NCBI GenBank assembly: GCA_965246755.1
Contig: OZ251979.1
Coordinates: 1,566,642 to 1,630,641, forward strand
Reading direction: 5' to 3'
Source: Alphaproteobacteria bacterium
Lineage (GTDB): Bacteria; Pseudomonadota; Alphaproteobacteria; UBA11073
DNA: 64,000 bases
How positions within the stretch are numbered: position 1 is the first letter of the stretch; every line of letters starts with the position of its first letter. Positions 10,657 through 60,392 of this stretch are shown here, one piece after another. Position numbers and translations under genes: made by a program. The notes under the pieces were generated by a model. That model made no database searches. It was not told where the DNA came from and was given only the letters and a program-made list of their open reading frames with translations.

Positions 10657-10739
10657 AAATGAATTGCTTTGCCATAGGCTGACAGCACGCTTTCGTGCAG
10701 CATTTCGGATAGGGTTGGATGCGGGAAGATGGTGTGCAT
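10657..10739. repeat. Direct repeat copy 1: orphan duplicate of the last 28 codons of lpdA, with the adjacent hairpin terminator aaattcatttagaaatgaatt
   Basis: 81/84 nt identical to 11428-11511; encodes MHTIFPHPTLSEMLHESVLSAYGKAIHF, identical to the LpdA C-terminus; all 3 differences are synonymous. Confidence 0.85.
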
Positions 10740-11086
10740 TATATTTTTTCCTGTTGGCGTGCTTTAGCCAATTGCTGTTGCTGCAGCATAAATTCACGCA
10801 ATACAGCATTCATACGCGATTGGTAACCGCGGCCAAATGATTTAAACCAAGTTACTACATCATTATCAAAACGGATGGTTAGTTGGTTTTTGCGTTCTTG
10901 AAAGCTTTGCATCTTTGTAGCCAGATCTTCTAGGCCATGCACAGCAACGCTATTTTCCCAGTCAATTTCATAAGGCAAAACATCATCCTCATCAGCCAAG
11001 ATTTCAGCTTCGGTCACGGCAACACGCGACCAATCGGTCTTACCCTTTAATTTTTTTAAATCTTCGATAGTGTGAGATTTCAGCAT
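10739..11086 (-). CDS. brnA: BrnA-type antitoxin (DUF4415 N-terminal region plus ribbon-helix-helix C-terminus)
   Basis: KGKTDWSRVAVTEAEILADEDDVLP and TIRFDNDVVTWFKSFGRGYQSRMNAVLREFM match BrnA; overlaps the upstream toxin gene. Confidence 0.7.
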   Translation of the reverse strand: MLKSHTIEDLKKLKGKTDWSRVAVTEAEILADEDDVLPYEIDWENSVAVHGLEDLATKMQSFQERKNQLTIRFDNDVVTWFKSFGRGYQSRMNAVLREFMLQQQQLAKARQQEKI

Positions 11087-12826: not shown

Positions 12827-13071
12827 ATGCTAATACTTTCACTGTAATTTTTTGTCCCAAACAATTGCGCGACCCATCCGCCGATTTTTGGAAACAAGGC
12901 ATATACATGATTTTTGACTATATTATCAACGTGTTGTGCCGTGCGACATGTAATTATAAGTCCTGACTTGCCTTGTACCCGCTCAATCTCAAAATCCTGC
13001 ACCAATTCAGGCAAATCAAAGCGGTCTAAAATTTTGTAAGCGCGCAATTGCGCAGCAGTTGGACGTGGCAT
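12823..13071 (-). CDS. Small hypothetical protein between pdhC and lpdA
   Basis: 82-aa ORF with 4-nt overlaps to both neighbours (translationally coupled); no recognisable family. Confidence 0.4.
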   Translation of the reverse strand: MPRPTAAQLRAYKILDRFDLPELVQDFEIERVQGKSGLIITCRTAQHVDNIVKNHVYALFPKIGGWVAQLFGTKNYSESISI

Positions 13072-14345
13072 TACAGCAATAATCCAATTGGGTTTTCAAT
13101 AAAATCTTTAAATGCCGCGATAAACTCCGCGCCGACTGCGCCATCAACCACACGGTGATCGACGGATAATGTAACCGTCATCACAGTCGCGATTTCCAAC
13201 TTGTCATTTTTAACGATGGCACGTTTTTCACCTGCGCCAACCGCCAGAATGCAGCCCTGCGGCGGATTGATGATCGCCGCAAATTGTTTGATGCCGAACA
13301 TACCGAGGTTAGAGATGGTAAAGGTGCCGCCCTGGAATTCCTCCGGCTTTAGTTTGTTCTCACGCGCGCGCAGGCCGAGGTCTTTCATTTCTTTCGAAAT
13401 GTCCGTTAGCGATTTGCCTTCCGCTTTTTTGATGATGGGTGTCACCAGGCCGTTCGGCGTCGCGACCGCGACCGAAACATCGGCATGTTTAAACTTTAAT
13501 ATCGCGTCTTCCGTCCAGGCGGCGTTAGCGGCAGGAATTTTGATCAGTGCCGCGGCAACTGCTTTGATTACCATGTCATTGACAGAAATCTTGGCAATAG
13601 TCTGCGCAGCATTATATTGCGCGCGAATATCCAGCAATTTATCAATTTCGCAATCCACCGTCAGGTAGAAATGCGGCACATTTTGTTTGGACTCGGTCAG
13701 ACGCTTAGCGATAATTTTTCGGATCTGACTGTTTGGTTCCGCCACATAGTCCATGCCCAGCATATCGGCCAATTGTCTGGCGTTAGGGCCCGACATAGTT
13801 GGCGCATTCACTTTAGCTGACGCTACGGCGCGGTCAGCTTGTCCCTTTGGAGCAGACTCGACATCCGCCACAACGATGCGGCCATGCGGGCCGGTGCCTT
13901 TAATAGTGGCGAGGGTAACACCTTTTTCAGCCGCTATACGTTTGGCGAGTGGCGACGCGAAGACACGGGCACCAGATGAAAGTTGGAGATTAGAAATTGG
14001 AGACTGGACAGGCGCAGATTGAACGGCCGGTGACGGTGCGTTGTTGGTGGCAATTGGTGTTTCGGTTTTTTTATCCGACGTCCCGCTTCTGACTTCCATC
14101 TCACCCTCTTCCAGCAAGATGGCGATGGGCGTATTGACGGCAACACCCTCACTCCCTTCGGCAATCAGGATTTTACCGATCCTGCCCTCATCCACGGCTT
14201 CAACTTCCATGGTTGCCTTGTCAGTTTCAATTTCAGCGATGACCTGGCCGCTTTTAACAGTGTCGCCTTCTTTCACTGTCCATTTGGACAATTTGCCCTC
14301 GGTCATGGTGGGCGACAGCGCTGGCATTAAAATTTCAATACTCAT
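13071..14345 (-). CDS. pdhC: Pyruvate dehydrogenase E2 dihydrolipoamide acetyltransferase
   Basis: N-terminal lipoyl domain ([17 protein letters not shown]), E3-binding domain, catalytic domain with DHRVVDGA. Confidence 0.9.
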
Positions 14346-15184
14346 GCGAATACTTCTTTAGATGGATGTTGCGTTGATAGATAAAGACGTGGCCGTAAAA
14401 ACCAATACAAGATTGAAAATAATATTGAATTAATAAGGCAAATTAAAAAACACAATTTACCTACTTTCTGAGCGTATATAGTTAGATGTTGTAAGGTGTC
14501 AAAATTGGTAGGCAATATGAAGAAAAAATTATAAGAAATAGATGATGCAATTAGTGATGATGCACATGACGTAATTAAGAAAGACAATAAATTTGGTTTG
14601 CAAATTCTGTGGATCAAATTCCAAACAATAAAAACAACGAAAGGTACGGTTATAAAATTAGCTAATAATCCAAACGATGGCTCTACGGATCCTCCCAAAA
14701 ATTTTTCTTCAAAATTAATACATAAAAAAAGTAAAATCACATTGAATAAGCCATATACTACCAATCCAAATTCAACCAAAAAACAATAAGCTAAAATTCC
14801 AAGTTTTTTCTGTTTGAAAAAAAGCTTTCCAAACACAATTGTTGCAGGAATCAAAAACAGAAAATCAAAGGCGTAACCAATCGGCGTGCTTTGCTGACCA
14901 CCGACCGCACCAACCGCAATTATTGGCATAAAAAATAGTACGAGGATGGCCCAACCGATTAAACGGTTTTGTTTCTCTATAAAGTTGTTCCCACGTTTTA
15001 AAATTTTCCAAATTATGTTCATGATTAATGGAAATATCAAAAGCGGGATTAAAATAAAATACCCAAAAAAAAGTCCTGAATATACAAATAATGTTGATCC
15101 GCCACCCATTAATGCGACAAACAAAGAATACAGAGACACATAGATAGCTTCATTTTTCTGCAAAAGATTAAATTTAATAAGCAT
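14342..15184 (-). CDS. Hypothetical polytopic membrane protein (AT-rich) inserted between pdhB and pdhC
   Basis: 280-aa ORF, ~8 predicted hydrophobic helices, Phe/Leu/Ile-rich; GC far below flanks; overlaps pdhB stop (TAATG) and pdhC start (ATGA). Confidence 0.55.
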
Positions 15185-16563
15185 TATTTGTTACAGACTT
15201 GCTTCACAGCCGCGACAATATCTTCCACCTGCGGCAATGCCAGATGCTCAAGATTGGCGGCATAGGGCAATGGCACATCTTTCGCGCAGACGCGCGCGAC
15301 CGGCGCATCCAGATAATCAAAGGCATGTTCCATCATCAGCGCCGCCATTTCGGAGCCGATACCGTAAGAAGGCCAGCTTTCCTCAACAGACACCAGGCGG
15401 TTGGTTTTCTTGACACTTTTAACAATCGTGCCGACATCGAGCGGGCGGATGGTGCGCAGGTTAATGACCTCCGCATCTATCCCCTGCTCCGCCAATTGTT
15501 CAGCGGCCTGCAACGCCTTACCGACCATAATTGAATAGGCCGTGATAGTGACATCTTTACCTGCGCGTTCAACCTTAGCCTTGCCAATCGGCAGCACATA
15601 GTCTTCATCCGTCGGCACATCAAACGATTGGCCATACATCATTTCGTTTTCGAGAAAGACCACCGGGTTGGGGTTACGGATGGCCGTCTTCATTAGTCCC
15701 TTGCAGTCCGCGGCCGACCATGGCGCGACGACCAACAGGCCCGGGATATGCCCGTACCAGCTGGCGTAGCATTGTGAATGCTGCGCGCCGACGCGCGACG
15801 CCGCGCCATTGGGGCCGCGGAAAACAATCGGGCAGCCCATCTGGCCGCCCGACATATATAATGTCTTGGCGGCAGAATTGATAATATGGTCAATCGCCTG
15901 CATGGCAAAATTCCAGGTCATGAATTCCACAATCGGTTTTAAACCGCCGAAGGCCGCGCCAACACCAAGACCTGCAAAACCATGTTCCGTGATCGGCGTA
16001 TCAATAACGCGGGTTGGGCCGAATTCATCCAGCAAGCCTTGGGATACCTTGTAAGCGCCGTTGTATTCGGCAACTTCCTCACCCATCAAAAAGACGGTTT
16101 TATCGGCGCGCATTTCTTCAGCCATTGCATCGCGCAAGGCTTCACGGACGGTTTGGTTTTTGACGTCTTTAAAAAAACGCGTCTCATCAAAATCGTCATC
16201 AGCGAACGTCATGTGCTGCTCGGGGTAATCGGTTTTGAGGGCAGTAGCAGCGGCAGCACTAGGTTCACCCAAATCTTTAATTTGCGGTACAGCTTGCGCA
16301 GGTGCAGCAGAGACTGTTTCACCTGCGGCGCCCAACACGGCGATTGGCGCATTGACCGCCACGGCTTCCGTGCCTTCCGGCACCAGGATTTTTAGCAACG
16401 TGCCTTCATCAACTGCCTCGACCTCCATGGTCGCTTTGTCGGTTTCAATTTCGCACAGGACCTGGCCACTTTTAACGGCGTCGCCTTCCGCCTTCAGCCA
16501 GCGAGCGATTTTGCCCTCGGTCATCGTCGGCGACAGCGCCGGCATTAAAACATCAATGGTCAT
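15184..16563 (-). CDS. pdhB: Pyruvate dehydrogenase E1 beta subunit with N-terminal lipoyl domain
   Basis: N-terminal lipoyl domain [22 protein letters not shown]...[17 protein letters not shown], then transketolase-like E1-beta. Confidence 0.9.
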
Positions 16564-31940: not shown

Positions 31941-32213
31941 ATGAAAATGGAGCTTAACCTGCCTGACAATTTACCGCCACCGCTGGTTAATCATATCGGC
32001 CAATTGCTTGACCGTATTCAAGATGATCCGTCGTTTGCCGAAGATATTTGGTTACACGATGATGCACCGGATAATTTTGTTATGACGCCGGAAATTCGCA
32101 CCAAAATTGAAGAGGGTTTGGCTGATATTGCTGTAGGACGTATTTTGACCTCTGAACAAGTTGATAAAAATTTGGCCGAATATCGGGCACAATGGCTAGC
32201 TCAGAACAATTAA
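31941..32213 (+). CDS. Putative antitoxin paired with the downstream ParE-like toxin
   Basis: 90-aa acidic protein; overlaps the toxin gene by 22 nt; C-terminal TPEIRTKIEEGLADIAVGRILTSEQV resembles addiction-module antidote proteins. Confidence 0.5.
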   Translation: MKMELNLPDNLPPPLVNHIGQLLDRIQDDPSFAEDIWLHDDAPDNFVMTPEIRTKIEEGLADIAVGRILTSEQVDKNLAEYRAQWLAQNN

Positions 32214-32524
32214 AGGTTATATATTCTGAAAGTGCCCAAAAAGATTTAAAGGAAATCTGGCGTTGGAATGCTAAAACTTATTGTTTAAATCATGCTGATA
32301 AATATATCGAACAGTTAAAGACAAAAATCTGTATTTTAGAATCGGACCCCCATCGTGGCACTGCAATAATTGAATATCAGGATTTACGGGGCCTGCTGAT
32401 TAAAAAACGTAACAGTAAACATGGGCATATGGCCTTTTATAAAATCAATCAAAGCACAATTTATATAGCGCGCATTCTACATACTGCAATGAATTGGCAA
32501 ATTCATCTAGATGGCAATGCATGA
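32192..32524 (+). CDS. parE: ParE/RelE-family type II toxin
   Basis: 110 aa; SAQKDLKEIWRW..., C-terminal HGHMAFYKINQSTIYIARILHTAMN matches the ParE H.I.YR....I.I.RILH..MD signature. Confidence 0.75.
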   Translation: MASSEQLKVIYSESAQKDLKEIWRWNAKTYCLNHADKYIEQLKTKICILESDPHRGTAIIEYQDLRGLLIKKRNSKHGHMAFYKINQSTIYIARILHTAMNWQIHLDGNA

Positions 32525-52921: not shown

Positions 52922-54115
52922 ATGAACCACACAATATTACCTTTATATAATATGTTTATGCCTGCTTTTATCAAGGGCGAAGGCGTTTATTTGTATGATA
53001 CGGACGGCAAACGCTATGTCGATTTTGCCTGCGGTTATGGCGTCAATGCCCTGGGTCACTGTCATCCGCATGTGGTTAAGGCGCTGACCGACCAGGCGCA
53101 AAAGGTCTGGCATATCTCCAACATGTTTCACCATCCGCTACGCGAACAGCTGGCCGACCGTTTCACCGCCGCCTGTTTTGCGGACAAAGTCTTTTTTACC
53201 AACTCAGGCGTGGAGGCCTGGGAGCTCGGCCTCAAAATGACGCGCAAGTATTTCGCGGCCAAGGGCCAGCCGCAAAAATACCGTTTAATCTGCATGGATG
53301 GCGCCTTTCACGGCCGCACGATGGGCGCCATTTCTGCCGCGCCGCGCGATTACATGGTGGATGGCTTTCAGCCGCTGCTGGACGGTTTTGACATTGTACC
53401 GTTTAACGACATCGCGGCGCTCAAGTCTGCTATTACGCCTAACACCGCCGCCATTCATCTGGAACCCATCCAGGGCGAAGGCGGCATTCGCCCGCATGCC
53501 AAAGACTACATGCAGGCGGTTAAGGAGCTCGCCGCACAGCACGACTTGTTGATTTTTTACGATGAAGTGCAATGCGGCATGGGCCGTACCGGCCATCTGT
53601 TTGCGGGTGAGGGTTATTATGGCGTCGCGCCGGATATTTTATGCACAGCCAAGGGCATCGGCACCGGCTTCCCGCTTGGCGCGCTGTTAGCGAATGACAA
53701 AGCTGCTAGCGCCATGACTGCGGGCAGCCATGGCTCAACTTATGCCGGTAATCCCTTGGCGATGGCGGTCGGTAATGCGGTGCTGGATATCATGCTGGCA
53801 GATGATTTTATGCCGCAGGTGCGCAAGCTGGGCGATCACCTGTCCTATGGCCTGCAAAAATTGATGCTGGAATTTCCGGAGGTTTACATTGAACATCGCG
53901 GCCTGGGCCTGATTCAGGGCTTGCAATGCGCGCCCGCTATTAACAACCGCGCATTGATTGAAACCATGCATGCTGCGGGCGTCATCTCCATACCCTCGGG
54001 TGAAAACACGGTACGTATCCTGCCGCCGCTGATCATTAGCGAAACTGAAATCGATGAAGGCATTGCCGCCATGAAGATAGCAACGCAAAAGTTTATGAAA
54101 GGAAAAACATCATGA
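52922..54115 (+). CDS. argD: Acetylornithine aminotransferase (class III PLP aminotransferase)
   Basis: YVDFACGYGVNALGHCHPHVVKAL..., DEVQCGMGRTG, PLP-Lys region TAKGIG. Confidence 0.85.
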   Translation: MNHTILPLYNMFMPAFIKGEGVYLYDTDGKRYVDFACGYGVNALGHCHPHVVKALTDQAQKVWHISNMFHHPLREQLADRFTAACFADKVFFTNSGVEAWELGLKMTRKYFAAKGQPQKYRLICMDGAFHGRTMGAISAAPRDYMVDGFQPLLDGFDIVPFNDIAALKSAITPNTAAIHLEPIQGEGGIRPHAKDYMQAVKELAAQHDLLIFYDEVQCGMGRTGHLFAGEGYYGVAPDILCTAKGIGTGFPLGALLANDKAASAMTAGSHGSTYAGNPLAMAVGNAVLDIMLADDFMPQVRKLGDHLSYGLQKLMLEFPEVYIEHRGLGLIQGLQCAPAINNRALIETMHAAGVISIPSGENTVRILPPLIISETEIDEGIAAMKIATQKFMKGKTS

Positions 54116-54450
54116 CAAAAGCTGTTACTGACTATAATAATTTTGGCGCCCTCGATATGCATGTTGGCAAAATAATCAAAGTTGAAGATGCCGACACAAA
54201 AAAACCTACCTATCGGATGACGGTCGATTTTGGTGCCGATATTGGCATAAAAGTTAGCTGTGGTGCTTATCGTAACTATGCGAAGGATGAACTAATTGGA
54301 AAACAAATTATTGGCGTAATGAATTTGGGCAGCCGCAAAATGGGTCCAGAAATTTCAGAGTTTCTACTGTCGGGTGTGCCAAATGAAGCAGGTGAAACGA
54401 TTTATTTAATGCCTCAATCAAACGTGCCGTTGGGCGTAGAAATATTTTAG
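54112..54450 (+). CDS. CsaA/Trbp111-type tRNA-binding protein (EMAP-fold)
   Basis: FGALDMHVGKIIKVE...TVDFGADIGIKVSCGAYRNYAKDELIGKQIIGVMNLGSRKMGP matches the tRNA_bind domain. Confidence 0.7.
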   Translation: MTKAVTDYNNFGALDMHVGKIIKVEDADTKKPTYRMTVDFGADIGIKVSCGAYRNYAKDELIGKQIIGVMNLGSRKMGPEISEFLLSGVPNEAGETIYLMPQSNVPLGVEIF

Positions 54451-54451
54451 T

Positions 54452-55480
54452 GTGAAACTTTTCGTTTTTTATGTTGGCGGTGATGCGCCGGGGTCAAATA
54501 TTGAACTGCATGACCTGCGCATGGTGGCTGGAAAATCTATGACAGATTGTTTTCCAACCTTACGCAAAGACTGGTGGGGCATTCCGGAAAGCTTGCATCT
54601 CGATTGCTGGGGCGAATTGAAACATGCTGATGGCTATGACATTGCACTCAAGTCCGAGCCTTACACCGGCCCTGAAAAATTGTGGTTTATCAATTTGGGC
54701 GGCTATCAACCCGGTGAGTTTACCGAGCTGCATAAAAACGTCTTCGTTGTCGCGCCGCGTGAGGTTAAGGCACGTGCCAAGGCGCTCGCGCAAATTCTTG
54801 ATTGGCGCGGCCATCATAAGGATGCACAATTTGAGGTTGAAAAAATCATCAACCTCGACACCGTCGCCGCCGCGCAAGGCCTGCATATTCACCTAACGCC
54901 CAACAGCAACGGTGAAGAATTTAAATTCAGCTATGGCTATAAACCGATTGGCAAAGCTGAACAGGCGGTTGAATTCACCAGCAATACTTCCGTACGGCAA
55001 CTCGCGCCCGATGAATGGCCGTTATTCAAAGAGTGGCGTCTGAAAGCGTTGAAAAGCGATGCTGGGATGTTTAGTGCTACCTATGAAGATAAGCTGCAAC
55101 AGCAAGATGACGAATGGCAAAAGTTTACTAATAGTCCAGATACAGCGATCTTTATCGTGTATGATCATAATGAAGCAATTGGGCTAACTGCAATTAGCAT
55201 TGATCACAAAGATTTAACCCGCACCCAGGCCGTATTATGGGGATCTTGGCTTAAACCGGAATATCGTAGTCGCGGTATTTCCAAGCAATTATATGCAGCG
55301 CGTCTGACGTGGGCAAGGCAACAGCCATCAATTAAAAAAATCATTGCCGGTCATCGTGCGTCAAATATTGCTTCCCGCCAAGCCATTCTTAAACATGGAT
55401 TTACTTATACTTCAACCGAAACAAAATTGTGCCCTGACGGAGAAACTGATGATGTGCACGACTATGAACTTATTCTTTAA
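54452..55480 (+). CDS. DUF1543-like N-terminal domain fused to a C-terminal GNAT acetyltransferase
   Basis: N-terminus MKLFVFYVGGDAPGSNIELHDLRMVAG...LHLDCW resembles DUF1543 (from memory); C-terminal FIVYDHNEAIGLTAISI...EYRSRGISKQLYAARLTWARQQ is a GNAT acetyl-CoA-binding fold. Confidence 0.55.
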   Translation: MKLFVFYVGGDAPGSNIELHDLRMVAGKSMTDCFPTLRKDWWGIPESLHLDCWGELKHADGYDIALKSEPYTGPEKLWFINLGGYQPGEFTELHKNVFVVAPREVKARAKALAQILDWRGHHKDAQFEVEKIINLDTVAAAQGLHIHLTPNSNGEEFKFSYGYKPIGKAEQAVEFTSNTSVRQLAPDEWPLFKEWRLKALKSDAGMFSATYEDKLQQQDDEWQKFTNSPDTAIFIVYDHNEAIGLTAISIDHKDLTRTQAVLWGSWLKPEYRSRGISKQLYAARLTWARQQPSIKKIIAGHRASNIASRQAILKHGFTYTSTETKLCPDGETDDVHDYELIL

Positions 55481-55495
55481 ATTCTGGATTTTAAC

Positions 55496-56410
55496 ATGAC
55501 GCCAAAACACTTCCTCGATCTCAACAACATTCCTACCGATGTCATCAAACACCTGTTGGTACTGGCGCATTCACTGAAACGCGACCGTAAGATGCATAGC
55601 GAAACGCTGAAGGGTAAAACGCTGGCGATGCTGTTTGAAAAACCGTCGCTGCGAACGCGCGTGTCATTTGATGTCGGCATGCATCAGCTGGGCGGGCATT
55701 CAATCATGCTGACGGGGCAGGAAATCCAGCTGAAAAGCGATACGTCCATACCGGATGCCGCACGGGCGCTGTCGCGCTATGCGAACCTGATGATGTTCAG
55801 GACGCATGCGCATGACTACCTCACCACGCTTGCCGAACATTCGACCATTCCTGTCATCAATGGCCTGACCAATGACACCCATCCCTGTCAGGTCATGGCG
55901 GATATGTTGACGATTGAAGAACATCGTGGTCCCTTGAATGGCAAAATCATTGCCTTTGTCGGTGATGGTCAGGATAATGTTTGCACGTCATGGATTCATG
56001 CCGCGCAGCATTTTAAAGTCACGCTGCGTATCGCGGCGCCCACCGGTCATCAACCACTATCGGCAATTATCGATGCTGCAACCGCCGCTGGTGCCATGAT
56101 TGAAGTTATGGAAGACCCCGCCGCCGTGGCACATAATGCCGATGTTATTATGACAGACACCTGGGTCTCCATGGGTCAGGAAGATGAAACCATGGCACGG
56201 CGCGAAATGTTTGCGCCTTATCAGGTCAATAGCCAGCTTATGCAACGCGCCAAAGCTGACGCGATTTTCCTGCATTGCCTCCCCGCCTATCGCGGCCAGG
56301 AAGTCACCCGCGATGTTATCGACGGTGCCCAGTCGGTCGTCTGGGATGAAGCAGAAAATCGCCTGCATACGCAAAAGGCCATTATGCTGTGGTGCGTTGG
56401 TGCGGTTTAG
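55496..56410 (+). CDS. argF: Ornithine carbamoyltransferase
   Basis: FEKPSLRTRVSF (STRTR motif), HCLP motif. Confidence 0.9.
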   Translation: MTPKHFLDLNNIPTDVIKHLLVLAHSLKRDRKMHSETLKGKTLAMLFEKPSLRTRVSFDVGMHQLGGHSIMLTGQEIQLKSDTSIPDAARALSRYANLMMFRTHAHDYLTTLAEHSTIPVINGLTNDTHPCQVMADMLTIEEHRGPLNGKIIAFVGDGQDNVCTSWIHAAQHFKVTLRIAAPTGHQPLSAIIDAATAAGAMIEVMEDPAAVAHNADVIMTDTWVSMGQEDETMARREMFAPYQVNSQLMQRAKADAIFLHCLPAYRGQEVTRDVIDGAQSVVWDEAENRLHTQKAIMLWCVGAV

Positions 56411-58270: not shown

Positions 58271-58750
58271 TTAAGCAGCAAGGCTGAGAGTCAAATCAGC
58301 ATTACGTTTTTGATACCGTAGTCGCTGTAAAGTATTTTGACTTTTGCCAGCCACCCCAAATGCTTCTAAAAGCTGCAAACGTACAGCAGGCAAACCCGCG
58401 CTTTCACTAGCTTCAGAAATAACGCCAACAATTTCATCCTTAGACATATCTTGTTTTGCGAACACACTGGCAAACATATGTTTATCAAAATCATCACAAT
58501 CCTCATAATAATGTTTGCACAATTCACCAAAAAACAGGGTGAGCGCTTTCATATCATCCGTGCAAAAAGCAGGAGTGATTACCACACGCTGTAAACTTTG
58601 CAGATATATGGATCCGTCAATGTTAAGATCGCCTATTAATCTACGCGCGTGTTTAATATCGCGCTCTTCCAGATTCTGCAGCCATCGCTCGGCCAGCATA
58701 CTATTTAATTTATCAGATGGTACAAAATCCCTAATTTTACTGGTGGTCAC
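58271..58750 (-). CDS. Hypothetical protein (AT-rich)
   Basis: 159-aa ORF in a low-GC patch; no family recognised. Confidence 0.4.
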   Translation of the reverse strand: MTTSKIRDFVPSDKLNSMLAERWLQNLEERDIKHARRLIGDLNIDGSIYLQSLQRVVITPAFCTDDMKALTLFFGELCKHYYEDCDDFDKHMFASVFAKQDMSKDEIVGVISEASESAGLPAVRLQLLEAFGVAGKSQNTLQRLRYQKRNADLTLSLAA

Positions 58751-58812: not shown

Positions 58813-59394
58813 TTATACAAAGCCAATTTTTTGCTGCAATGCAATATTTAACTTTTTTACGTAGTCTTTTCGCAACACTTCTATTACACCAAATGATCGC
58901 AGATGCTCAGTTTGAAATTGCACATCCAACAGCAAAAATCCTTGGCTTTTAAGCCTCTCGACTAGCGCCACCAGCGCGACTTTGGAGGCATCGGTCACCG
59001 TTGAGAACATGCTTTCGCCGAAAAAGGCGCCACCGAGGCTGACGCCATAGAGGCCACCAACTAGCTGTCCGTCCTGCCAGCTTTCCACGGAATGGGCATG
59101 GCCAAGTGCATGCAACTGATTGTAAACCGCGAAAATTTCAGCATTAATCCAACTGTCAGACCGCAGGTCGGCACAGGCGCGCATCACGTTCGCAAAGTTT
59201 TTATCTATATGTATATCAAACTTGCCGCTGCGATAGGTACGCAATAACCGTTTGGAAAAATGCACGGCATCCAGCGGCAAAATCGCGCGCGGGTCAGGTG
59301 AATACCAATCGAGCTCCGTTGCCGTCGTACTGTCTGCCATCGGGAAATAGCCATTGGCATAGGCGTTGAGAAGAATTTCCGGCGTTAGGTGCAC
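58813..59394 (-). CDS. aat: Leucyl/phenylalanyl-tRNA--protein transferase
   Basis: LLNAYANGYFPM...SWQDGQLVGGLYGVSLGGAFFGESMF. Confidence 0.85.
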   Translation of the reverse strand: MHLTPEILLNAYANGYFPMADSTTATELDWYSPDPRAILPLDAVHFSKRLLRTYRSGKFDIHIDKNFANVMRACADLRSDSWINAEIFAVYNQLHALGHAHSVESWQDGQLVGGLYGVSLGGAFFGESMFSTVTDASKVALVALVERLKSQGFLLLDVQFQTEHLRSFGVIEVLRKDYVKKLNIALQQKIGFV

Positions 59395-59816: not shown

Positions 59817-60392
59817 ATGCAAAGCATAGTCACACTGACCAGCAGCATTACCATTAGTGCAATTCGTACCGATGACGAAATTGAAATGATGCGCGTCATC
59901 AACGCGGAAATTTGGCGCGGCTATTTTCCAACGATTTTGCCCGCCGAACAAACCGAATATATGCTCAAAAAATTTTACAGCGCCGCCACTATTCGTGCCA
60001 AAATCGACCAGGGCGAGCAGTGGTTCTTAATCAAAATTGGTGACGAACTGACCGGACATTTTTTATACAGCCTATATCCAGATGATAAAAGCGTAAAATA
60101 TGAAAAAGCATTTTTCAAAGCAGATTTTCGCGGCCGCGGTATTTTTCCGATCACGTTGAACTATGTTGAAGGATTGGCGCGCATGCAAGGCTTAGACAAA
60201 ATTACCATGTGCACGGATATTCACAATCAGCGCGTCATTGACGTGGCGCATAAGTTTGGCTTTAAAACTGTCGCGCAGCGCGATATCGACATTGGTGCCG
60301 GCTATCACATGCGGGACTATTTTTTTGAAAAAGAATTGACTGGACCCGAACCGGTTTCAGTGCTTGCCGTCAATCGTGATATTGCGCCCTAA
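59817..60392 (+). CDS. GNAT-family N-acetyltransferase
   Basis: ADFRGRGIFPITLNYVEGLARMQGLDKITMCT... acetyl-CoA-binding motif. Confidence 0.7.
   Translation: MQSIVTLTSSITISAIRTDDEIEMMRVINAEIWRGYFPTILPAEQTEYMLKKFYSAATIRAKIDQGEQWFLIKIGDELTGHFLYSLYPDDKSVKYEKAFFKADFRGRGIFPITLNYVEGLARMQGLDKITMCTDIHNQRVIDVAHKFGFKTVAQRDIDIGAGYHMRDYFFEKELTGPEPVSVLAVNRDIAP

Follow-up and report, generated by a model that had tools for sequence, protein, structure and literature searches.

A rare DUF1543-GNAT fusion gene in a variable slot between argD and argF of a small-genome alphaproteobacterial lineage

This study concerns two genes that lie between argD and argF in a 64,000-nucleotide stretch (hereafter the window) of contig OZ251979.1 from an alphaproteobacterial genome assembly (GCA_965246755.1). 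One of them encodes a short CsaA-like protein, and the other encodes a protein in which a DUF1543 domain is joined to an acetyltransferase domain of the GNAT family. We observed that this fusion occurs in three independent assemblies, and that the CsaA-like gene and the GNAT each occur without the other in related arginine clusters. A preliminary description of the same DNA had viewed the two genes as an insertion into the arginine cluster and, speculatively, as a tRNA-directed acetylation system.

Results

The locus between argD and argF

The genes argD, csaA-like, DUF1543-GNAT and argF form one closely packed block on the same strand (Table 1). The coordinates of the open reading frames (ORFs) confirmed the earlier statement that two genes are tightly fitted between argD and argF: in addition to the ATGA overlap with argD, the GTG start of the fusion gene lies 1 nt past the TAG of the CsaA-like gene, and a gap of 15 nt separates the fusion from argF. 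Both flanking genes exceeded the NCBIfam cut-offs, with ArgD scoring 530 bits against PRK01278 (cut-off 372) and 419.5 against TIGR00707 (cut-off 410), and ArgF scoring 424 bits against PRK00779 (cut-off 306) and 365 against TIGR00658 (cut-off 281). The domains that had been named for the two intervening genes, PF01588, PF07566, PF00583 and PF13302, all exceeded their Pfam gathering scores, as did PF00202 in ArgD and PF02729 and PF00185 in ArgF.

An AGGA sequence is present ~10 nt upstream of the ATG of the CsaA-like gene. Since the GTG of the fusion has no clear Shine-Dalgarno sequence and comes directly after the CsaA-like stop, translation of the fusion is probably coupled to that of the CsaA-like gene. 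The numbers of promoter-like and terminator-like sites between 52000 and 57200 showed no excess over the shuffled expectation, which is consistent with a single transcription unit for the block.

Both intervening genes had been described as being of lower GC content. This holds for the CsaA-like gene (GC 0.40; GC at third codon positions, GC3, 0.35) and for the GNAT half of the fusion (GC 0.43, GC3 0.37), but not for the DUF1543 half, whose values (GC 0.50, GC3 0.52) are typical of the window (mean ORF GC3 0.53, sd 0.10).

Table 1. Genes and modules of the argD-argF block (window coordinates; module boundaries from alignments A1 and A3 and motif positions)
Feature	Position	Strand	Remarks
argD (acetylornithine aminotransferase)	52922-54115	+	First gene of the block; PF00202, E = 4e-109
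CsaA-like single OB-fold gene (PF01588 tRNA_bind), 112 aa	54112-54450	+	Start codon shared in part with the argD stop (ATGA)
DUF1543-GNAT fusion gene, 342 aa	54452-55480	+	GTG start; PF07566 with PF00583/PF13302
DUF1543 module, residues 1-170	54452-54961	+	Corresponds to a complete standalone DUF1543 protein
Linker, ~8 residues (EQAVEFSN region)	54962-54985	+	
GNAT module, residues 179-342	54986-55477	+	Corresponds to a complete standalone GNAT of ~167 aa
argF (ornithine carbamoyltransferase)	55496-56410	+	Last gene of the block; PF02729 and PF00185

A rare and conserved fusion

In the fusion protein the conserved C-terminus of the DUF1543 module (GYKPIGK) is followed, after ~8 residues, by the conserved N-terminus of the GNAT (TSVRQL). 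Such an end-to-start junction with a short linker is as expected if two neighbouring genes had become one when the stop codon between them was lost. Among the matches in 5.8 billion clustered proteins, the fused form was found only in P0001, which is the protein of this genome, and in P0002, and it was absent from the best 150 matches of an exhaustive HMMER search over 1.84 billion cluster representatives. A third fused lineage was found in L008/L009. The DUF1543 family (PF07566, 2qsd) is normally a standalone protein of ~190 aa; its union with a GNAT was seen solely in the genome of the window, P0002 (locus L001) and L008/L009.

A sequencing frameshift or artefact was rejected as the origin of the fusion, since it is present in three independent assemblies; the fusion called in the preliminary description is thus both real and rare. 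The orthologue P0002 is 59% identical to the window protein, and the comparison of the window with P0002 and L008 gave 59-67% identity. That the fusion has been kept through this divergence, with the invariant residues of both halves intact, argues for selection on the fused product. In the same HMMER pass, other relatives of the GNAT were found fused to a second GNAT, NUDIX, His_Phos_1, DUF4387 or acylphosphatase.

Upstream of the fused gene in L001 (positions 1-68) there is a G+C-rich hairpin, CCCCGG-CACAA-GGCCGGGG, together with a strong AGGAG ribosome-binding site. As no CsaA stop overlaps the fused gene there, it probably does not stand directly after a CsaA-like gene in this lineage; the contig ends at that point.

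The DUF1543 module and the start of the fusion gene

PF07566 matched the 342-aa protein with 66.7 bits against a gathering score of 22.9, and residues 2-138 aligned to PDB entry 2qsd (Idiomarina loihiensis IL1583) with an E value of 9e-31. The DUF1543 half aligns over its full length with the standalone proteins of ~190 aa, and every residue that is invariant in the family is kept, namely G9, G10, E18, H20, D21, W41, H49, D51, N81, E92, H94, H122 and D124 (alignment A3, 47 sequences). In the public gene model P0001 (313 aa), M30 is taken as the start, and 29 residues (54452-54541) are lost, G9, G10, E18, H20 and D21 among them. Since residues 2-29 align to 2qsd and hold these invariant positions, the GTG at 54452 is, on the strength of the alignment, the true start of the fusion, and the P0001 model is N-terminally truncated.

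The standalone DUF1543 genes lie in heterogeneous contexts, and none of them had a CsaA or GNAT gene alongside in the loci examined. Their neighbours are SDR, MobA-like, MobB and TusA genes in one context, a TonB receptor and FAD oxidoreductases in another, and glycoside hydrolase/glycosyltransferase (GH/GT) genes with CNNM in a further one. The sole locus from a one-protein scan of genome contigs (L002) is a standalone DUF1543 in a metagenome-assembled genome (MAG) of the Alphaproteobacteria; neither arg genes nor a CsaA or GNAT gene lie close to it.

The GNAT module

The GNAT half scored 50.0 bits against PF00583 (E = 4e-13; gathering score 20.7) and 38.6 bits against PF13302 (E = 2e-9; gathering score 25.4). 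It is 40-55% identical to standalone GNATs, the L010 protein being at 55%, and these begin at the equivalent of fusion residue ~177-179 (alignment A1). The putative acetyl-CoA motif reads R272-S-R-G275-I-S277 and is accompanied by a conserved H301-R302-x-S-N305. When compared with the consensus R/Q-x-x-G-x-G/A, its Arg and central Gly do not vary within the family, and the last position is an invariant Ser, not Gly/Ala.

The DUF1543 and GNAT halves were each modelled alone; a joint MAFFT alignment of fused and standalone proteins misplaced the GNATs. The AlphaFold2 model of the GNAT half had a pLDDT (predicted local distance difference test) of 93, and Foldseek matched it with a probability of 1.0 and template modelling (TM) scores of 0.7-0.8 to PaiA, RimL, phosphinothricin acetyltransferase (PAT; phosphinothricin/ArsN-type), SpeG and the tabtoxin-resistance protein TTR. 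The GNAT profile gave weak matches to PDB sequences, the best being 2jlm (5e-6), and PHROGs returned a generic acetyltransferase match only. From its sequence and model, the GNAT thus appears to resemble generic RimL/PaiA/phosphinothricin-type acetyltransferases, and its solved neighbours are small-molecule and N-terminal acetyltransferases. It shares with RimJ/RimL-type and small-molecule GNATs the fold, a putative acetyl-CoA motif and scores above threshold for PF13302 and PF00583, but it reaches none of their curated subfamily cut-offs. Membership of a well-characterised GNAT subfamily, which the preliminary description had named as a result that would speak against its proposal, was therefore not found among the curated NCBIfam families.

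A second GNAT gene of the window (59817-60392, + strand; PF00583, E = 2.9e-8, and PF13302) adjoins aat, the gene for the Leu/Phe-tRNA-protein transferase (58813-59394). It was considered as a paralogue of the fused GNAT and rejected (BLASTP E value 0.095). Elsewhere, a distant member of the GNAT family with 38% identity (L055, 2-1953) has its start codon at the stop codon of a class II glycyl-tRNA synthetase (GlyRS)-like gene carrying PF00587 and HGTP_anticodon; this is one instance.

The argD-argF slot in relatives

The relatives with the closest CsaA-like homologues share the synteny of the window, in the order PAS histidine kinase, RecX, argD, argF, helix-turn-helix (HTH) protein, MlaD, DUF2155 and Aat, and the content of the space between or around argD and argF varies. 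The order is argD-CsaA-argF in L003/L004, which have no GNAT, and argD-GNAT-argF in L015, L016 and L058, which have no CsaA in the flanks. In L010 it is argD-GNAT-argF-CsaA, so that CsaA stands behind argF, and in L011 it is argD-CsaA-GNAT-argF, with a standalone GNAT and a TGATG overlap. Of the fused lineages, L008/L009 read argD-CsaA-DUF1543-GNAT up to the end of the contig and L001 reads DUF1543-GNAT-argF. Judged by this comparison, the slot has long housed both the CsaA-like gene and the GNAT, each of which is dispensable singly, and only the DUF1543 is an addition by a narrow lineage, arriving as a GNAT fusion. To speak of two inserted genes is hence misleading, as the CsaA-like gene and the GNAT are long resident across the clade (L003/L004, L008/L009, L010, L011, L015, L016, L058). 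The pair does co-occur in other genomes, but only within the same inherited synteny block; the PF01588 gene stands next to the GNAT in L008/L009 and L011, as in the window, and nowhere else among these loci, and the two are not conserved as a unit.

A metagenome scan with the GNAT alignment yielded 57 loci, 55 of them with a GNAT match. An argD or argF gene was nearby in four of these 55 and a PF01588 gene in one. The DNA of the 51 non-arg GNAT loci was fetched, and none of them held PF01588 (38 of the 51 had at least 350 nt upstream); their neighbours included OYE reductases, FliI-FliJ, Ser/Thr kinases and a GlyRS gene. Location in an arginine cluster is therefore true of the closest ~8 GNAT loci and false for 51 of the 55 metagenomic loci. 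The non-arg GNATs L017 and L028 are 56-59% identical to the arg-slot GNATs, which are ~60% identical among themselves.

In L016 (2959-4934; the gene start also in L015), the gene behind argF encodes a standalone B3_4 protein (PF03483) homologous to the editing domain of the phenylalanyl-tRNA synthetase (PheRS) beta subunit, and ArgJ (PF01960) and a major facilitator superfamily (MFS) transporter come next. This B3_4 protein is a second domain related to aminoacyl-tRNA synthetases within the same arg cluster. A 159-aa ORF of the window (58271-58750, - strand, GC 0.41) has no Pfam match and lies between DUF2155 and aat; as it is absent from the syntenic L003/L004, it is by this comparison a further lineage-specific passenger of the neighbourhood.

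The CsaA-like protein

PF01588 covers residues 16-108 of the 112-aa protein with 45.2 bits against a gathering score of 27. The protein remained below all NCBIfam CsaA/tRNA-binding equivalogs (PRK10089.x and TIGR02222 chap_CsaA were tested), with a best score of 91.4 against a cut-off of 117 and a second score of 86.5 against 119.65. Its top PDB match was T. thermophilus CsaA (1gd7, 5e-18), followed by B. subtilis CsaA and a secretion chaperone of A. tumefaciens, and then by weaker matches to E. coli YgjH (7e-11) and Trbp111 (2e-6). [quoted passage not shown] In terms of these matches, 'tRNA-binding' is the Pfam name of the fold, and among characterised proteins the CsaA secretion chaperones come nearest to the 112-aa protein. 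Like the CsaA/Trbp111/YgjH family, and best its solved members from T. thermophilus, B. subtilis and A. tumefaciens, the window protein consists of one tRNA_bind domain of ~110 aa that spans the whole protein; it differs in scoring below the equivalog cut-offs and in sitting, in this clade, in an arginine operon.

The CsaA-like sequence is highly conserved, with hundreds of proteins at 63-76% identity. It is 75-76% identical to orthologues of the same argD-argF slot and 69-76% identical to the set from L003, L010 and L011, and a homologue with 75% identity lies in an unrelated cbb3 oxidase / S26 peptidase context (L005). The GC3 of the gene is 0.35 here and 0.58-0.64 in the L003, L010 and L011 orthologues. 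Unlike the CsaA-like gene, the arg-slot GNAT has a low GC3 (0.44-0.48) in all relatives. Recent horizontal gain was rejected as the origin of the CsaA-like gene, because its identity of 75-76% to the slot orthologues matches that of ArgD (57-71%) and ArgF (68-74%) and the low GC3 is peculiar to this genome. The protein is also 66-71% identical to P0102, P0153 and P0168, which are labelled Candidatus Zambryskibacteria, Kaiserbacteria (Candidate Phyla Radiation, CPR) and Pacearchaeota. Such identity across distant taxa is unusually high, and strong conservation, transfer or mis-binning of MAGs are possible causes.

Other genes of the window

The window also contains canonical type II toxin-antitoxin genes, namely those of a ParE toxin (32192-32524, + strand; PF05016; GC 0.35) and a BrnA antitoxin (10739-11086, - strand; PF14384; GC 0.41). 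These two ORFs have some of the lowest GC values in the window, and they look quite different from the CsaA-like/fusion pair. The lowest GC of all (0.316) belongs to a 280-aa orphan ORF (14342-15184, - strand) without a Pfam match, which stands between the genes for pyruvate dehydrogenase E1-beta, with an N-terminal lipoyl domain (15184-16563), and E2 (13071-14345). As the N-terminus of this orphan appears hydrophobic, it may be a membrane protein.

Discussion

With moderate confidence, we favour the explanation that the fusion is a lineage-restricted, two-module, acetyl-CoA-dependent N-acetyltransferase which is co-expressed with the arginine genes, and that the CsaA-like protein and the GNAT are separable passengers of a variable slot and not a tRNA-directed, toxin-like system. 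In the argD / csaA-like / DUF1543::GNAT / argF operon of this ~1.9-Mb genome, the argD-argF region would be a slot that takes up small passenger genes in this clade. A CsaA-like OB-fold protein and a RimJ/RimL-like GNAT of ~167 aa would be its old residents, either of which can occur when the other is absent. Within a single narrow lineage, an entire DUF1543 gene would then have been fused, in frame, to the beginning of the GNAT already there. The GNAT half is most likely an active acetyltransferase, which would pass the acetyl group of acetyl-CoA to a primary amine on a small metabolite or a compound resembling an amino acid; a protein N-terminus is a less likely acceptor. For the DUF1543 half and its invariant Glu/His/Asp residues, a part in binding or processing the same or a related ligand is probable. 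The fusion would be co-transcribed with the arginine genes, and its most likely mode of translation is together with the CsaA-like gene.

Several points weigh against this explanation. The GNAT half of the fusion remained below every curated NCBIfam cut-off, scoring 39.1 against 140 for the group E aminoglycoside family AAC(6') (AAC_6p_group_E), 17.3 against 86.4 for rimI and 15.8 against 184 for rimL (PRK10151). For the DUF1543 half, the fold search with its model gave nothing informative beyond 2qsd, and a literature search on the family (PF07566, 2QSD, IL1583) gave nothing relevant; the invariant Glu/His/Asp pattern is what suggests a ligand-binding or catalytic role. The near-overlap of CsaA and GNAT genes recurs in three lineages (window, L008, L011), and a functional link between them may thus exist. 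Finally, the comparison covered the 64-kb window of this genome and metagenomic contigs of short length, so that presence or absence of the partners was scored within these stretches.

It is very unlikely, in our judgement, that the CsaA-like protein recruits tRNA or aminoacyl-tRNA which the GNAT then acetylates, in a two-gene system chemically akin to AtaT/TacT. The CsaA-to-GNAT order with an overlapping or 1-nt-spaced stop and start in the window, L008 and L011 agrees with such a system, as do the weak matches of the GNAT profile to RimL (E = 7e-4) and MccE (0.02). RimL and MccE acetylate aminoacyl-nucleotide antibiotics. A GNAT homologue overlaps a GlyRS gene (L055), a gene similar to PheRS-B3/4 follows argF (L016), and relatives with PF01588 bind tRNA, at the 3' end in the case of Trbp111 and by report for CsaA (PMC11286949). 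The supposed partners are, however, separable: CsaA stands alone in L003/L004, the GNAT stands alone in L015, L016 and L058, and argF splits them in L010. PF01588 is missing from all 51 non-arg GNAT loci, including the 38 with at least 350 nt upstream, and the 75%-identical CsaA homologue of L005 lies in an unrelated context. Of the proteins characterised so far, secretion chaperones are the closest to the 112-aa protein. The fusion has as its neighbours the PF01588 gene and argF, with no DUF1778/ribbon-helix-helix (RHH) antitoxin, and PADLOC gave no match. TacT, AtaT, ItaT and KacT were absent from the 46 PDB sequence matches (E<=10) and from the top 50 Foldseek matches. What the window GNAT has in common with these toxins is general GNAT chemistry and a small catalytic module only; it differs in having neither an antitoxin of the DUF1778/RHH type nor specific sequence or fold similarity to them, in having a dispensable partner gene and in lying in a biosynthetic operon. 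The tRNA-acetylating pair put forward in the preliminary description therefore finds no support, since its partners are separable, no antitoxin partner or PADLOC match is seen and there is no similarity to TacT/AtaT.

The location of the GNAT could also be taken to mean that, alone or fused, it is an unrecognised short N-acetylglutamate synthase (NAGS) or another acetyltransferase of the arginine pathway, kept between argD and argF for priming the acetyl cycle, with the DUF1543 in a regulatory or substrate-binding role; this we regard as unlikely. A GNAT lies between argD and argF, with overlaps or short gaps, on at least seven contigs (window, L001, L008, L010, L011, L015/L016, L058), and the L016 cluster runs on to ArgJ (PF01960, 475 bits). 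Among the structural neighbours of the GNAT, some (phosphinothricin/ArsN/PA4866-type, TTR) acetylate the alpha-amino group of glutamate analogues, and there is a precedent in the unrelated single-domain GNATs S-NAGS Rv2747 and C-NAGS Cg3035, which proved to be NAGS (PMC3827942). The window GNAT resembles the short NAGS (S-NAGS Rv2747, the ArgH(A) fusions, C-NAGS Cg3035) in being a GNAT of ~165 aa in an arginine cluster, where such proteins are sometimes fused to other domains (PMC3827942), but it has no detectable sequence relation to ArgA or S-NAGS and its family lies mostly outside arg clusters. No ArgA/NAGS model of NCBIfam was matched at E<=0.01, and the 46 PDB sequence matches (E<=10) likewise held no NAGS. 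Identity between the arg-slot GNATs and the non-arg L017 and L028 (56-59%) is on a par with that within the arg-slot set (~60%), 51 of the 55 metagenomic loci of the family have no argD or argF nearby, and L003/L004 retain the operon without any GNAT. There is a slim chance that the arg-slot GNAT is a new class of NAGS, or an acetyltransferase directed to the arginine pathway or to antimetabolites, with DUF1543 as an amino-acid-binding or -processing partner domain. In a weaker variant, the CsaA-like protein and the GNAT may act together on a substrate of the aminoacyl or peptidyl type.

Somewhat less doubtful, though still improbable, is pure hitch-hiking, in which the three modules have no functional tie with one another or with arginine synthesis and the fusion is a neutral read-through accident with independent halves. 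The content of the slot is combinatorial across the relatives, and other lineage-specific passengers are found nearby (B3_4 in L015/L016 and the 159-aa ORF at 58271-58750). Relatives of the GNAT are fused to many unrelated domains, and the contexts of standalone DUF1543 genes are heterogeneous. A neutral accident does not sit easily with a fusion that has persisted while its bearers diverged to 59-67% identity, with all invariant residues of both halves intact, and we retain the two-module N-acetyltransferase as our preferred explanation.

For the small-genome clade of Alphaproteobacteria, the variable slot at argD-argF, which takes CsaA-like, GNAT, DUF1543 and B3/4 genes, is a caution against deducing function from tight spacing alone. 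The truncated public gene model P0001 is corrected by the present analysis. The GNAT of the slot is a candidate for the recurring problem of the 'missing NAGS', and, if it were indeed a NAGS, the fusion would offer the first functional handle on DUF1543 (PF07566, 2qsd). The DUF1543-GNAT protein is a rare, real and conserved architecture, and as such it provides a Rosetta-stone clue to the function of a family that has a solved structure.

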